Below are positions 1,038 through 45,127 of a DNA stretch of 50,671 nt, piece after piece (within the stretch, counting starts at the first letter, position 1; each line of letters begins with the position of its first letter). This stretch comes from an uncultured Planctomycetia bacterium (GTDB taxonomy: Bacteria; Omnitrophota; Gorgyraeia; 2-01-FULL-45-10). The position numbers and the translations under genes were made by a program. The stretch lies in NCBI GenBank assembly GCA_964433975.1, contig CAYSSS010000004.1:1-50671 (forward strand), in the 5' to 3' direction. The notes under the pieces are model-generated. The model had not been told where the DNA came from. It worked only from the letters and a program-made list of their open reading frames with translations, and did no database searches.

Positions 1038-1406
1038 TTTTAGCAGACCGGATGGTCGCTTCGCCGGTTTTTAGGGCGGAGAGGAAAGTCCGAGCTCCAT
1101 GGAGCAGCGTAACGGCCAACGGCCGTCCGTCGCAAGACGAGGATCAGAGGACAGAGACGAGTCCTGTACCACTAAAATACCTTTGGTATTTTTCGGGTAC
1201 AGGGGTGAGACGACCAATCTCTACGCGGAGCAAGATCAAATAGGTCCCGATTTAAGGGTTGCTCGCCCTTACTGTAAATACATCAGTATCGGGACGGGTA
1301 AGGTCGCTCGATCGCCGGAGTAATCCGGCGGCTAGATAGATGACCATCTCGCATCGTGTCGAAAGGCGCGGTGCAAGACAAAACTCGGCTTACAGGTCCG
1401 CTAAAA
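1038..1406 (+). ncRNA. rnpB: RNase P RNA (class A-like, apparently lacking P13/P14)
   Basis: GAGGAAAGTCCGAGCTCC (1081-1098), GGAGCAAGATCAAATAG, TAGATAGATGACC and ACAAAACTCGGCTTAC are present. P1 is TTTTAGCAGACC/GGTCCGCTAAAA; P4 is GTCCGAG/CTCGGC. Confidence 0.97.
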
Positions 1407-1443
1407 TAAAGAGGCGCTTCGAAAGAGGCGCCTCTTTATTATT
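1405..1443 (+). terminator. Intrinsic terminator after rnpB, possibly bidirectional
   Basis: AATAAAGAGGCGCTTC-GAAA-GAGGCGCCTCTTTATT hairpin with T-rich 3' side and A-rich 5' side. Confidence 0.85.
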
Positions 1444-1453
1444 CTTCAGAGAT

Positions 1454-1632
1454 GGCGGACCTTGCGAGGGCCGCCTTTCGCGGGCGTCCCGCCATATTAG
1501 GCATATGGTGGGACTCGACAAAATTTTTACAAAAATTTAACTTCTTTCAGGAATTTAAATTTTTAGCTATACCGCCACAATGTGTAAAAATTTTGTAACG
1601 CCGCTTCAGGCGTTTCCCTCGCAAGGTCCGCC
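1454..1632 (+). repeat. Structured dispersed element, copy A (179 nt)
   Basis: Perfect 17-bp terminal inverted repeat (1454-1470/1616-1632) plus internal hairpins. Homologous to 1716-1913 (-) and 44544-44730 (+). Confidence 0.85.
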
Positions 1633-1715
1633 CGATGTAACAAATCAAATAAAACTTTTCTGTTCTAGAATAATAGGGGTCAGGCGTTTTTAGGTAGGTA
1701 TCTGACGCTTATTGA

Positions 1716-1913
1716 ACAGGCGGGCCTCGCGGGGCGTTGCCGAAGCGGCGTTACAAATTTTGATACATTATGGCAATCTAGAAAGGCCGGACAAACTGCT
1801 CAAGCTATGGATGGTTTGCAGGTTGGACGGACATCAAAATTTGTCTGAATAAATTGGTATGCCTAATCCAATTTATGTCCACTGAGGCAACGCCCCGCGA
1901 GGCCTCAGCCTGT
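1716..1913 (-). repeat. Structured dispersed element, copy B (inverted)
   Basis: Perfect 19-bp inverted repeat (1723-1741/1886-1904). The reverse complement shares GGACATAAATT, TAGGCAT, GACAAA and TAACGCCGCTTC with copies A and/or C. Confidence 0.8.
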
Positions 1914-1996
1914 GATTGAAATATCCCGAGAATTTTCAGGCAGGACCCGCAATCAATTAAGCATAGAAACAGAAAAGTTTTTAATAACCAATACGC

Positions 1997-2025
1997 TTGA
2001 CAAGGGTGGGGGTGTAGTGTATACT
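1997..2025 (+). promoter_or_regulatory. Sigma70-type promoter of the dcw operon
   Basis: TTGACA (1997-2002), 17 bp, TATACT (2020-2025). Confidence 0.85.
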
Positions 2026-4078: not shown

Positions 4079-5776
4079 GTGCATAGCGGAACCTTTCGTA
4101 CTCGCCAGATCTCAGTATTTCTCTTCTTTCTTCTCTCTCTAGCGCTTCTTATAGTACGCCTCTTTTATCTGCAGGGAATAAAACACTCTTTCTACTACAA
4201 GATAGCCAACGAGGAGCATATCGTAACTGTCGAACTCCAGCCTAAGCGAGGTACGATATTTGACAGGAATATGCGGGTTCTCGCGGTTAACTTGAATAGG
4301 ATATCAGTCTATGCTAATCCGCGTGAAATTAAGGATAAGACGAGAGCCGTAAAGATAATCTCAACCGTATTGGGCCTGAAAAACGATTTTGTCGCGGAAA
4401 GATTATCGAGAGATAAAGGCTTTATATGGATAAAGCGCAAGGTCTCAAATAAAGAAGCCGCAGCGCTCAAAAAATTTAATATCACGGGAATAGGTTATAT
4501 CGACGAATCAAAGAGGTTCTATCCAAACGCCGATTCCGCGTGCCACCTGATAGGGTCGGTTGACATAGACAATAAAGGGCAGGAGGGCCTCGAAACGCTT
4601 TATAACGAATACCTGAAAGGGCAGGAAGGCTTTCTTGTCGCGACCCAGGATGCCAAGAGAAAATTGCTACATTCCTACCGGGAGGATTTCCTGGCTCCAA
4701 AGAACGGCTACAATCTCGTACTTACAATAGATGAAGTTATCCAGAATATAGCCGAGCGCGAGCTCTACAAGATGTATGATAAGTACCACGCCAAGGGCGC
4801 GGCGATAGTCGTTATGGATCCGAAGAACGGAGACATACTGGCTTTGGCCAGTTTCCCTAATTATGACCTCAATAACATCGCCAAGAGGCAGGCCGACTCA
4901 GTCAGAAACAGGGTCATAAATGATTTTTTTGAGCCGGGCAGCGTATTTAAGATAGTCACGGCAAGCGCTATACTCGAAGAACGCGCCGTGGATCTCAATG
5001 ATAAATTCGATTGCGAGAACGGCGCGTGGAAAGTCGGAAGAAGAGTTCTTCACGATCACAGGCCTCACGGAGTGATGACATTCAGAGAAGTCATAGAGAT
5101 GTCGAGTAATATCGGTACGGTCAAGGCTGCCGGCGTTCTCGGCTCCGCAAAGATGAACAAATATATGAATTTATTCGGTTTCTATGAGAAGACCGGCATA
5201 GACCTTCCTGGCGAGGTCCTCGGCATGAACAGGCCCTTATCCAGATGGACCAAGACCAGCATGCTTGCCATACCGATGGGCCAGGAGGTTACGGCGACCG
5301 CGATACAGCTTGCTTCAGCCATATCCGTGATAGCGGACAACGGATTTTTATTGAGACCGCGCATAGTTAAATGGATAGAGGATGACAAGGGACAGGTGAT
5401 AAAGGAATTTCCTCCCCAGGTCAAGAGGAAGGTAATATCCCCGATGACCGCTTACCGGATGAGAGTGCTCCTGATGGGGGTCGTAGAATCCGGCACCGGT
5501 AAAAAAGCGAAGGTCGAAGATTTCAGCACGGGCGGCAAAACAGGGACCGCGCAGAAGGTTGAGCCGCGCGGGGTATATTCGCATGACAAGTTTATAGCAT
5601 CGTTCATAGGTTTTGCGCCAGTCGGAAAACCGGCTATAGCCGTGGCGGTTTGCGTCGATGAGCCTCATCCCGTATATTTCGGCGGGGATGTCGCCGCTCC
5701 GGTATTTAAAAATGTTGTGGACGAATCCCTGAAGTATCTTAATGTTAAGGATACCAGGCCGGTTGTGGTAAAATAG
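4079..5776 (+). CDS. ftsI: Class B penicillin-binding protein (PBP3/FtsI)
   Basis: N-terminal TM; RGTIFDRN; EPGSVFK (SxxK); SSN (SxN); GKTGT (KTG). Confidence 0.95.
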   Translation: MHSGTFRTRQISVFLFFLLSLALLIVRLFYLQGIKHSFYYKIANEEHIVTVELQPKRGTIFDRNMRVLAVNLNRISVYANPREIKDKTRAVKIISTVLGLKNDFVAERLSRDKGFIWIKRKVSNKEAAALKKFNITGIGYIDESKRFYPNADSACHLIGSVDIDNKGQEGLETLYNEYLKGQEGFLVATQDAKRKLLHSYREDFLAPKNGYNLVLTIDEVIQNIAERELYKMYDKYHAKGAAIVVMDPKNGDILALASFPNYDLNNIAKRQADSVRNRVINDFFEPGSVFKIVTASAILEERAVDLNDKFDCENGAWKVGRRVLHDHRPHGVMTFREVIEMSSNIGTVKAAGVLGSAKMNKYMNLFGFYEKTGIDLPGEVLGMNRPLSRWTKTSMLAIPMGQEVTATAIQLASAISVIADNGFLLRPRIVKWIEDDKGQVIKEFPPQVKRKVISPMTAYRMRVLLMGVVESGTGKKAKVEDFSTGGKTGTAQKVEPRGVYSHDKFIASFIGFAPVGKPAIAVAVCVDEPHPVYFGGDVAAPVFKNVVDESLKYLNVKDTRPVVVK

Positions 5777-30403: not shown

Positions 30404-32315
30404 AGGGCTCAACAAGCTTTTTCATTTTATTCCTATAAAGGCCAACCTTTGGATCGGGAGGTTTTTCGGCGGGATGGCTTTTGCTTTCAACAGAAAGAGG
30501 CGGCTTATAGCCTATGCCAATCTTAAGGCCGCATTCGCCAAAGAGAAGAGTCCCGAAGAGCTGCGCGCCATTACCAAAGATGTTTACGTGAACCTTTTCC
30601 AGACATTTTCCGAGATAGTGAGCCTTACCAAGGTGAACAAAGATTACGTTAATAAGTACGTGGAAGTGGTAAATATGGAGCGTATAGAGAATGCGGCCAA
30701 GTCCGGTAGGGGCACTATGCTTCTAACCGGCCATTTCGGAGATTGGGAGCTCTCCAGCCTCGTAAGCGCCATGAAGGGCTTTCCGATAACGGTCCTGGCA
30801 CGCGAGCAGAAGATGAAACGTTTAAATGAGTTATTGAACCGCTTGAGGGAGTCGAAGGGGTGTAAGGTCGTCAGAAAGGGAATGTCGACGAAAAATATCC
30901 TGAGGGAGCTTTACAAGAAGAGTATGGTTGGAATATTATCCGACCAGGATGCGGGCAAGAAGGGAACGTTTGCGAACTTTTTCGGACGCCCCACATCCGC
31001 GCATTTAGGGCCTTTCGAGATAGCAAAGCACACGGACTCCATAATACTGCCTAACTTCATAGTGCGCGTCAACGGCCCGTTTCATAAATTATATCTAGAG
31101 GATTACATCGATGTCAGGCATTCTATGGGCAGGGAGGGTTTGGTTGACGGCCTACAGAGGTATATGATGCTTCTGGAAAAATATATACGGAAGTATCCGG
31201 CACAGTGGCTGTGGCTGCACAAAAGATGGAAGTCTACGCCCAAGAGGACGGTCCTCATCCTCAATGACGGAAAGGCCGGACATCTCAATCAATCGCTTGC
31301 GGTTGCGCGCCAGATACAGAGGGCCAGGACAACCCAAAATTACGGGCTGAGCGATACCAATATAGTCGTTGCGGAAGTAAGGTATAGGAACAAATTTTTT
31401 AGGGCTCTCTTGACGTTTGCATCAATATTTGCCTCATGGAGATGTCACGGCCGCATGAGCTTTATGAAGATCTGCCTTGAGAGAGATTCTTACGAAAAGC
31501 TCATGAAGAGTTACGCCGAGTTTATAGTCTCTTGCGGCTCGAGCCTGGCACCCGTTAATATCTTCATGTCCAAGGAGAATAATGCAAGAAATATAGTCGT
31601 GATGGATCCGGCCATTCCATTCGCCCTGAAGAAGTTCAGTTTTGTCATAGCGCCGAAACACGACAGCATAAAAAAGGGCAAAAATATAATTACCACAACA
31701 CTTGCGCCGAACCTCGTGAACGCGGAATCGTTGCGACTTTCTGGGGAAGATCTTAAAAAGAACCTGAGAATCGAAAAAGATAAGATGCTGGGCCTTTTAA
31801 TCGGCGGGGACAATCCCGAATTTGAGCTTTCAGATAACCTGCTGCGGGAGGTCCTGGCCGACACGCTTAAGATATGCGAAGCTAATGATGCCGAGTTGCT
31901 TGTTACGACCTCAAGGCGTACAAATAGATCTCAGGAGTCTATAATTAAGGCTGCGTTGCAGAAAAATCCGAGATGCAGGCTCCTTGTGATCGCTAATGAA
32001 AATAACCCGGAAGGAACCCTCTCCGGGATTTTAGCATTGGGTAATGTCGTTATTGTTTCCGGCGAATCGATATCGATGATCTCAGAGGCAATAAGCTCGG
32101 GAAAGAAGACGGTGGTATTTAACCTTGAGAAGAAAAGAAGCGGCATAACTAAGCATGAGCTTGCATTGGAAAATCTCGTGAAAGAAGGTCACGTCTCCAT
32201 AGCCAGAAGAGGAGAGCTCATATCTCTGGTGGGACGTGCGCTCAAAGACGCCTCTCCCTCGAAGAAGATCTGTGATACGGACAGGATCTACGAGGCGATG
32301 CGCGCTTTGATCTAA
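30372..32315 (+). CDS. Fusion of a lipid A acyltransferase (LpxL/HtrB family) and an ELM1/GtrOC1-like putative glycosyltransferase
   Basis: N-half has HFGDWE, DQD, FFG and QWLWLHKRWK. C-half has DGKAGHLNQS, LLIGG, TTSRRT and ESISMISEA. Confidence 0.85.
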   Translation: MLDYIASILARGLNKLFHFIPIKANLWIGRFFGGMAFAFNRKRRLIAYANLKAAFAKEKSPEELRAITKDVYVNLFQTFSEIVSLTKVNKDYVNKYVEVVNMERIENAAKSGRGTMLLTGHFGDWELSSLVSAMKGFPITVLAREQKMKRLNELLNRLRESKGCKVVRKGMSTKNILRELYKKSMVGILSDQDAGKKGTFANFFGRPTSAHLGPFEIAKHTDSIILPNFIVRVNGPFHKLYLEDYIDVRHSMGREGLVDGLQRYMMLLEKYIRKYPAQWLWLHKRWKSTPKRTVLILNDGKAGHLNQSLAVARQIQRARTTQNYGLSDTNIVVAEVRYRNKFFRALLTFASIFASWRCHGRMSFMKICLERDSYEKLMKSYAEFIVSCGSSLAPVNIFMSKENNARNIVVMDPAIPFALKKFSFVIAPKHDSIKKGKNIITTTLAPNLVNAESLRLSGEDLKKNLRIEKDKMLGLLIGGDNPEFELSDNLLREVLADTLKICEANDAELLVTTSRRTNRSQESIIKAALQKNPRCRLLVIANENNPEGTLSGILALGNVVIVSGESISMISEAISSGKKTVVFNLEKKRSGITKHELALENLVKEGHVSIARRGELISLVGRALKDASPSKKICDTDRIYEAMRALI

Positions 32316-32390
32316 TCAGGTTAGTCTAATCAGATTAGTCTAGATTAGTCTAATCAGGTTAGTCTAATCAGATTAGTCTAATCTGATTAG
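32311..32390. repeat. Tandem 14-bp self-complementary repeat
   Basis: Five full units TCTAATC(AGG/AGA/TGA)TTAG plus one 10-bp truncated unit. Confidence 0.9.
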
Positions 32391-32440
32391 GGTTACGGGG
32401 TTGCGGAGATGCGGGGCTAGAGCGAACACAGGTATAACTC

Positions 32441-44543: not shown

Positions 44544-44730
44544 GGCAGGCATCGACCTCGCGGGGCGTGCCTTTCGCGGACATAAATTTGGATTGGGCAT
44601 CCAAATTTATTCGGACAAAATTTGATAAAATTTTAACTTCTTTCAGGAATTTAAAATTTTTTCTGTATCGCCATGAGGTATCAAATTTTTTAACGCCGCT
44701 TCAGGCACCACCCCGCGAGGTCTGCCTGCC
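44544..44730 (+). repeat. Structured dispersed element, copy C (187 nt)
   Basis: Terminal stem GGCAGGCA..GACCTCGCGGGG / CCCCGCGAGGTC-TGCCTGCC. Shares TTTAACTTCTTTCAGGAATTTAAA and TAACGCCGCTTCAGGC with copy A. Confidence 0.85.
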
Positions 44731-44745
44731 ATAACCTCTATGGAA

Positions 44746-45127
44746 GCGGGCCACCGGGTATTCCGCCTGCGCCTGTCAGCGCTACAGGGCTTTGTGAGCG
44801 GCCATTAGAAATTTTTTGGCACATTGTATATGGCTAGTCGGTGTGCAAGGATTTACGTTGAGCGAATGCAGGAACTGACCGACCAACGCCCATACCGATA
44901 CAGGAACACCTTGAAACTGTATGGGCTTAAGGGAGGGAATTCCTGCAAATTCGCGAAACGTAAACCGCAGCACACGGCAAAAAATTTCGCATATACTCGC
45001 TTGGAGAAATCCCCGAGCGAACCAAATGCGGAATTTCCATACCGGTGAGCGAGGGAAATTTCAGGCCGCGAACAAAGACCTGGAGTGATGGCAGGGGGAT
45101 GTCAGTGCACACTTTGGCGGCCTCCGC
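44746..45127 (+). ncRNA. Candidate ~380-nt highly structured RNA of unknown family
   Basis: Long nested stems with G-U pairs on the + strand and two tandem GA/GA internal loops; no credible ORF. Confidence 0.5.

Follow-up and report, generated by a model that had tools for sequence, protein, structure and literature searches.

A branched, covarying fold in a dispersed intergenic repeat of an Omnitrophota lineage

REP (repetitive extragenic palindromic) and REPIN elements are simple hairpins that flank their own RAYT (REP-associated tyrosine transposase) gene. Elements derived from IS200/IS605 insertion sequences (ISs), and the HEARO or omega RNAs of TnpB, were first seen as 'orphan' RNA motifs; their ends are recognized in a structure-dependent and strand-specific manner, and they leave no target duplication. 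Here we describe a structured intergenic repeat that occurs three times in a DNA stretch of 50,671 nucleotides (hereafter the window; positions 1 to 50,671 of contig CAYSSS010000004.1, assembly GCA_964433975.1) from a bacterium of the phylum Omnitrophota, whose members are uncultured and have small genomes, and whose non-coding DNA is almost unexplored. On balance, we lean toward the view that this is a fold-dependent, non-autonomous intergenic repeat of one Omnitrophota lineage that is mobile, or was until recently, and that is moved in trans.

The closest known kinds of element are bcr1, miniature inverted-repeat transposable elements (MITEs) of the ERIC and Correia type, and REPINs (cf. PMC3184786, in the sections that treat these repeats). 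As portrayed there, bcr1 is a non-autonomous intergenic repeat of about 155 bp in the Bacillus cereus group whose distribution is not conserved between relatives. Compensatory changes keep its branched fold with independent stem-loops, and the element is flanked by 5-bp direct repeats and is transcribed (PMC3184786). Sizes of about 35 nt for REP and about 100 nt for REPIN elements come partly from the same source. Those sections also portray bacterial MITEs such as Correia (CREE), ERIC, RUP, Nezha and Chunjie as having a long fold at the RNA level and as lying often at the 3' ends of genes (PMC3184786). The repeat described here is set apart by a three-way junction with a covarying loop-loop contact, by a modular inner hairpin, and by the fact that no target duplication or partner gene was found at the junctions and loci examined.

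A repeat family that preserves its fold

A preliminary description of the window, made from its letters, reported three copies of one structured element. A covariance model built from 19 copies in the window's own genome (model R1) places all three (copies A, B and C, Table 1) with scores of 169-207 bits, and the quoted stems, a TT(A/G)GGCA loop, a GCCA motif and TAACGCCGCTTC are present in each. The three sequences align with a mean column identity of 76%. Predicted RNA folds have z-scores against shuffled sequences of -11.9 for copy A (-91.2 kcal/mol), -8.3 for copy B and -10.0 for copy C, and 0 of 200 shuffles were as good. Because the copies align and each folds far better than its shuffles, the observation is real. 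Two details were narrower than the family proves to be. The sequence TAACGCCGCTTC, called invariant, is so among the three window copies but not across the family (e.g. TGACGCC and ACAGTCGCTCC), and the three copies are part of a set of about 24 in the genome.

This genome (G000) comprises 1.87 Mb in 127 contigs; G, C and L numbers are labels for the genomes, contigs and loci examined. At E < 1e-3, an nhmmer profile of the three window copies gives 31 non-overlapping hits in G000, of which some 21 are close to full length, and two covariance models give 24 and 25 matches. Many of these copies are located at contig ends. Family members are about 155-250 nt long and non-coding, with no conserved open reading frame (ORF). 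Two pairs of G000 copies exceed 95% identity, most copies are 70-88% identical, and all are well paired.

When the genome and its relatives were searched with R1, as the preliminary description had proposed, full-length matches were found in all 40 genomes and all 21 genera of the GTDB family to which G000 belongs (f1). The number of matches per genome ranges from 1 to 32, and these values are lower bounds that reflect the part of the candidates that was scored. In a class-level sample, R1 found matches in 5 of 101 genomes. With a second model, R2, built from metagenome copies, an order-level sample gave matches in 39 of 41 genomes (36 of 36 in f1 besides G000, 2 of 3 in family f3 and 0 of 1 in family f2) and a phylum-level sample in 12 of 151. 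A contig-end copy in another family of the class (L079, G063:C39; 109 bits) is near-identical to one in G045, a member of f1, which suggests a mis-binned contig or a recent transfer.

A strict motif pattern matched one named record, a metagenome-assembled genome (MAG) titled Omnitrophica bacterium. A second pattern matched 107 metagenome stretches and 0 viral contigs, and the 80 stretches examined all contain a model match. Searches of phage and plasmid collections with blastn gave no match to the repeat. The copies also match no Rfam family, as had been supposed. Rfam 15 at gathering thresholds matched RNase P alone in the whole window, and over positions 1400-2000 with E up to 10 it gave weak hits far below threshold, with no ribozyme or riboswitch family among them. 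Models of self-cleaving ribozymes (hammerhead, twister, pistol, hatchet and HDV-like) gave no match even at E up to 10. Full-text literature searches turned up no description of this element, which is a thin basis for calling it unpublished.

The fold begins with a GC-rich terminal stem (P1, then P2) and a short P2b, which close a three-way junction that carries hairpin P3 and helix P4. The P3 stem is 12 bp long and is capped by the loop ATTRGGCAT. The loop of P4 carries GCCATAAGGT and either has or lacks an inner hairpin, P4a, that sets the size of the unit: 155-162 nt without P4a, and about 188, 203 or 245 nt with its short, long or longer form. Besides the fold, the unpaired motifs CTTCCGC, ATTAGGCAT, GCCATAAGGT and TAACGCCGC are kept.

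An alignment of 110 distinct copies, drawn from 30 genomes, was fitted to the model and so favors pairing; in it, standard pairs make up 95.3% of 4657 pair cells, and both sides have changed in 39 of the 44 pairs. None of 500 shuffles reaches the observed value, and sliding one partner by 1-3 columns leaves 28-46% of cells paired. A further 91 distinct metagenome copies, none of which was used for R1, are 93.4% paired, with changes on both sides in 38 of the 44 pairs. Thus, the earlier proposal that structure rather than sequence is preserved, be it by selection or by some copying mechanism, is borne out by both sets, and its check on covariation after adding copies came out in its favor.

The same holds for the suspected pseudoknot between the GGC of the P3 loop and the conserved GCC of the P4 loop. 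These positions are paired in 99.4% of 318 cells, 8 cells are changed on both sides, and 0 of 500 shuffles reach this result. Seven distinct copies have A-U at the first pair and one has C-G at the second. The variants come from at least three subfamilies and six genomes, and therefore they represent few independent events.

An outer AT-rich stem, P0 (AAATTTTTCG.. / ..CGAAAAATTT), occurs in many genera and is found in about 40 of 101 copies, outside the window's genus. Its sequence varies in a compensated way (CGGCTT/AAGCCG, CGCTTC/GAAGCG, CGTCTC..), and it frequently overlaps the TAA that ends the gene before it. Exact complementarity of at least 7 nt between the flanks is seen in 52 of the 101 copies, about 40 of them with AAATTTTTCG. 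P0 has decayed in one genus (g1), where the inner fold is intact.

The folding data are similar for the two strands. As DNA, the two strands of copy C are predicted to fold alike, at -56.3 and -58.0 kcal/mol. Across the helices there are 140 G-T or T-G cells versus 42 A-C or C-A cells. However, 103 of the G-T cells fall at three helix-end positions, and elsewhere the counts are 37 versus 40. With G-T no more frequent than A-C across the main helices, base pairing gives no reason to prefer one strand as the RNA, and such symmetry is compatible either with neutral decay after insertion or with constraint acting on both strands.

Insertion sites and genomic neighborhoods

Comparisons with related genomes indicate that the copies act as insertions, which agrees with the non-autonomous element that the preliminary description gave as one of its two alternatives. 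In two congeners (G001, locus L039, and G004, locus L040), the rnpB terminator joins directly to the mraZ promoter with no repeat block, and thus the block that holds copies A and B is extra DNA in the window. One DNA contig (run X1) joins position 1405 to position 1988. The spacer of a third congener (G003) is filled by a convergent pair whose subtypes are in the opposite order. The long-type copy beside rnpB in that genome (L041, G003:C127) has its P3 loop split by an insert of about 240 nt, with ATTGGGCAT on either side.

Other loci give the same picture. The copy on contig C34 of G000 has an empty site in G002, and the 'tail' hairpin on C34 is part of the DNA missing from that site. The gap that contains the C27 copy measures 431 nt versus 62 nt in G001 and G004. 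A clean filled and empty case is provided by G055 and G013, which have gaps of 268 and 5 nt, respectively. No fixed flank motif, such as the tetra- or pentanucleotide 3' of which IS200/IS605-derived elements insert, was found in 101 flank pairs. As in MITEs, the units are short and non-coding, have inverted termini (P1, and P0 where present) and are present or absent between relatives.

Copies also serve as sites for other insertions. A nested element of about 70 nt occurs, in either orientation, within P4 of three copies (L012:297-550, L004:1511-1766 and L053:1732-1988). It has AAATTT at either side, whereas uninterrupted sister copies have a single AAATTTT, and this looks like a true 6-bp target duplication. 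At locus L016 (G000:C87), an IS3-type element (orfA/orfB, 15-1136) abuts a 3' repeat fragment (1137-1204), and a second, inverted 3' fragment follows at 5139-5214, as if the IS had inserted into a repeat copy. In genome G049 (L113 and L116), two unrelated repeats of about 215 and 330 nt adjoin copies and end in AATTTTTCG / CGAAAAATT, as does the outer stem P0.

Most copies are single and lie between housekeeping genes, with rnpB-mraZ, kdsC and xerC as examples. Of 12 copy pairs with less than 200 nt between them, 11 are convergent, one is tandem and none is divergent, although some of these are the same locus in related genomes. All five close pairs within G000 are convergent. The members of convergent pairs are mostly of unlike subtypes.

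For 107 copies, with crude ORF calls and related loci included, 58 upstream neighbors share the strand of the copy and 41 do not, and the corresponding downstream counts are 60 and 31. Among the 58 copies with a co-oriented upstream ORF, 28 begin within 30 nt of its end. Many copies closely follow a stop codon and point the same way as the gene before them, and their transcription into 3' untranslated regions (UTRs) is therefore probable. There, by analogy, they may act like REP, ERIC or Correia elements. Coverage in three contig-assembled RNA runs is limited to the conserved core of rnpB. A scan for promoters and terminators inside the copies gave 3 promoter-like sites versus 1.1 expected and 0 terminator-like sites, with nothing convincing among them.

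Table 1. Positions of the repeat copies, their parts and neighboring features. Coordinates are those of the window unless a contig of G000 is named.
Feature	Position	Strand	Remarks
Copy A	1448-1636	+	Short type, 34-nt inner hairpin P4a; starts 5 nt past the rnpB terminator; R1 190.9 bits, model positions 1-187
Copy B	1715-1914	-	Long type, P4a GTCCGTCCAACCTGC...GCAGTTTGTCCGGCC; convergent with copy A, 3' ends facing; R1 169 bits
Copy C	44544-44730	+	Short type; 27 nt past the stop codon of a kdsC-like ORF (read from sequence); R1 207.2 bits
Copy C, helix P1	44544-44565 with 44711-44730	+	From fold
Copy C, helix P2	44567-44572 with 44703-44708	+	From fold
Copy C, helix P2b	44576-44579 with 44696-44699	+	From fold
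Copy C, helix P3	44582-44593 with 44599-44610	+	From fold
Copy C, helix P4	44617-44626 with 44680-44689	+	From fold
Copy C, inner hairpin P4a	44627-44660	+	From fold
Copy C, GGC of P3 loop	44596-44598	+	Pairs with GCC 44670-44672 (P4 loop) as a kissing-loop pseudoknot; mapped from alignment columns
Copy C, GCC of P4 loop	44670-44672	+	Pseudoknot partner of GGC 44596-44598
Inserted block (copy A, spacer, copy B, flanking extras)	1446-1988		Missing from the rnpB-mraZ spacer of two congeners
'Tail' hairpin, about 38 nt	1676-1714	-	AAGCGTCAG...CTAAAAACGCCTGACCCC; adjoins the 3' end of copy B; same motif after two other copies on contig C34
Solo fragment	44745-44770	+	Resembles the 3' arm (P2'/P1') of another subfamily (..GGGCCACCGGGTATTCCGCCTGC); read against the aligned 3' end of the C24 copy; no model score
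RNase P RNA gene rnpB	1040-1408	+	Rfam RF00010, 199.9 bits; terminator hairpin at about 1410-1443
mraZ promoter-like site	1997-2025	+	TTGACA-17-TATACT, 11 of 12 consensus positions; conserved in G001 and G004; right edge of the inserted block
Four Y1 (IS200/RAYT-like) genes	C19:4603-5334, C28:7654-8235, C36:13175-13825, C71:5208-5780		190-243 codons

In the window, mraZ lies at 2075, downstream of its promoter-like site. By reading, AAAACTTTTCTGTTCTAGAAT at 1645-1671 and its near reverse complement at 1952-1978 bracket copy B and its tail, as if these were inside a larger inverted-repeat unit. Past copy C, positions 44771-45108 hold a non-coding repeat of about 340 nt (repeat 'Y', start ..CTACAGGGCTTTGTGAGCGGCCATTAGAAATTTTTTGGCA). 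Its start lies 4-40 nt past the 3' end of copy C and of two further copies, which are found at the ends of contigs C13 and C21, and in its interior it is similar to the nested element of about 70 nt.

The window also contains a short-repeat array with a period of about 14 nt (TAATCAGATTAGTC-like, 32312-32391) that is related to the arrays flanking the Y1 gene on C71. Similar arrays occur at about 10 other loci, which suggests a REP/RAYT system distinct from the repeat. G000 also has two reverse transcriptase paralogs (L131, G000:C50, 440-1573, and L132, G000:C54) with the motif IGNLTSQFFANVYL, which we take to resemble that of diversity-generating retroelements.

Mobilization and its alternatives

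If the repeat is moved in trans, its fold would serve mobilization. As single-stranded DNA (ssDNA) or as a transcript, it would be recognized by a trans-supplied enzyme during copying or moving, and recombination between copies would shuffle stem 'alleles'. At one locus shared by G000 and G001, the copies differ mainly by wholesale exchange of the P3 stem, which points to conversion between copies.

Several results weigh against such a mobile repeat. Within 1.5-2.5 kb of about 190 copies, the neighbors are housekeeping genes, and no transposase-like ORF is seen repeatedly. No autonomous IS with the same termini was found near these copies or among the multi-copy ORFs of G000, in MAGs that are incomplete and in which repeats assemble badly. 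Transposase genes in G000 are few (four Y1 genes and one IS3), and searches of this genome revealed no TnpB domain, no IS630-type hit (DDE_3) and no multi-copy DDE gene. The preliminary description had advised looking for copies beside transposase genes, and a model search of 33 Y1_Tnp loci (104 kb) found 0 copies. Overall, a mobilizing enzyme was not found with Y1_Tnp, TnpB, RVT_1 and DDE_3, and IS110, IS91 and serine or tyrosine recombinases except XerC/D were not searched for. In addition, no target-site duplication of at least 4 nt is seen at three readable junctions (rnpB-mraZ, C34/G002 and G055/G013), other junctions, at C27 and in G049, being heavily rearranged, and palindromic AAATTT flanks are indistinguishable from stem. 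There is also no sign of a recent burst, because so few copy pairs in G000 are more than 95% identical.

Two further observations on this side concern position. Of the copies flanked by co-directional genes, 38 have the orientation of those genes and 16 the reverse, a bias that could be explained by transcription as well as by replication. A copy is located directly behind xerC in G054, G055 and G006, which represent two genera, and another behind xerD in two genomes of a third genus. Across the xerC set there is no change in loops or junctions, the differences in P3 and P4a come as compensated blocks, and the DNA beyond the element is unalignable. Such a pattern may reflect in-place selection for a host function instead of mobility.

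These observations lead to a somewhat unlikely explanation that nonetheless has the most in its favor among the rivals: a cis-acting RNA that spread as mobile DNA and was then adopted. In 3' UTRs, the fold would be kept since it binds a protein, blocks exonucleases or terminates transcription, with the conserved loops as protein contacts. The bias toward co-oriented genes, the copies that start right behind ORFs, with the TAA stop often inside P0, and the xerC-adjacent copies with their identical unpaired motifs and compensated stem blocks all argue for this possibility, as do the age of most G000 copies, which are fully paired despite their divergence, and the intact inner fold in g1 after decay of P0. 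However, orientation is far from fixed, with opposite-strand neighbors in 41 of 99 cases on the upstream side and in 31 of 91 on the downstream side. Many copies are arranged convergently with another, the terminator of rnpB precedes copy A, and the main helices show no excess of G-U over A-C. Moreover, gene conversion between copies could mimic conservation in place, as the P3 exchange between G000 and G001 illustrates. We consider it rather improbable that the repeat is an ordinary MITE of a DDE transposon, with P0 as the terminal inverted repeat, AAATTT or TA as the duplicated target, and an inner fold that is incidental or kept by hairpin-templated repair. The complementary flanks of about half of the copies, the AAATTTTTCG sequence shared by many of them, the same ends on the unrelated G049 repeats, and the AAATTT on both sides of the nested element would all be expected in that case. 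Yet neither AAATTT nor TA is duplicated when filled G055 is compared with empty G013, and P0 covaries, which is unexpected for an inverted repeat bound by protein. A pair of G000 copies that is 98.5% identical shares the P1-bounded core alone, G000 has neither an IS630-type gene nor a multi-copy DDE gene, and a covarying loop-loop pairing would not be maintained if the fold were incidental.

More doubtful still is a REPIN-like element moved as folded ssDNA, without target duplication, by a RAYT-like Y1 (HUH) transposase. Y1_Tnp is the only common transposase type, with four genes in G000 and representatives in 34 of the 40 f1 genomes; the DNA folds strongly, inverted pairs are the rule, and the readable junctions carry no duplication. 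Nevertheless, the 33 Y1 loci hold no copy, and therefore the linkage of REPINs to RAYT genes is not seen here. Each Y1 gene of G000 is bracketed by its own short palindromic repeat family, unlike this element, and the convergent pairs mostly join unlike subtypes. No Y1 gene was found in six copy-bearing genomes, which include G045 (92% complete, at least 6 copies) and G008 (79% complete, 16 matches). Least probable, in our view, is a free-standing structured RNA (a ribozyme, or an RNA that binds a ligand or a protein) with many gene copies. The compact three-way junction, kissing loops and strongly conserved unpaired nucleotides are what prompt it, and we take the architecture to recall the tuning-fork shape of purine riboswitch aptamers. 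Nothing in the data points to a ribozyme or to a trans-acting RNA. The copies match no Rfam ribozyme or riboswitch, even at E up to 10, lack a conserved promoter or terminator, and occur in either orientation. Genomes carry anywhere from 1 to more than 30 matches, presence or absence differs between species, and the helices are near-perfect Watson-Crick on both strands. Of the two alternatives in the preliminary description, a mobile element fits better than a non-coding RNA or ribozyme.

Significance and comparison with known systems

Several hundred natural variants of one branched fold with a tertiary contact are now at hand, which is enough for an Rfam-style model and for structure probing. 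The repeat is also of practical concern because it breaks assemblies, as the many copies at contig ends attest, and it marks rearrangement hot spots in these MAGs. A bolder proposal, which we consider somewhat unlikely, is that the fold, far from incidental, is the working part of an undescribed system. This would be either a structure-guided mobile element, with its three-way junction and kissing loops as an enzyme's substrate, or an RNA module of mobile-element origin, adopted by the host family in many 3' UTRs, that binds a specific partner via its invariant loops. If the fold is the handle for an enzyme, it would represent a new kind of substrate among the few mobile DNAs recognized by structure, such as IS200/IS605 ends, REPs and attC sites. 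Should the host be what maintains it, a mobile repeat would have turned into a widespread RNA module of 3' ends.

Purine riboswitch aptamers have a closing helix, a three-way junction and two near-parallel arms joined by Watson-Crick G-C pairs between their loops. The repeat has 12-bp arms with larger loops, occurs in many copies, and is located behind genes rather than in 5' leaders, so the likeness is one of shape and not of membership. Integron attC sites form arrays between cassettes near an integrase and have paired R''/R' core sites. Copies of the repeat are single and lie between housekeeping genes. Compared with IS200/IS605-derived elements and HEARO RNAs, the repeat forms a single closed fold in place of two separate hairpins in subterminal positions; G000 lacks a TnpB-type domain, and there is no Rfam match to the HEARO or IS605-orfB motifs.

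With MITEs such as Correia (CREE), ERIC, RUP, Nezha and Chunjie, the repeat shares a length of 100-250 nt, a lack of coding capacity, inverted termini and a location between genes. It also resembles them in the long fold and the frequent placement behind genes mentioned above. However, MITEs have defined inverted termini, target duplications (e.g. TA) and often a known parent IS, whereas the termini of the repeat covary and neither a duplication nor a parent was found in our searches. The resemblance to REP elements, BIMEs (bacterial interspersed mosaic elements) and REPINs lies in a palindromic, intergenic nature, frequent inverted pairs, the absence of target duplication, and RAYT-like genes in the genome. 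These elements differ from the repeat, which is a branched fold of about 190 nt and has no copy at any of the 33 Y1 loci.

Judging from those same sections, bcr1 shares compensatory changes that keep a branched fold, and it is likewise non-autonomous, intergenic and patchy in distribution. Compared by description rather than by sequence, the repeat differs from bcr1 in that no duplication is seen, and in having a covarying loop-loop pairing and modular inner hairpins.

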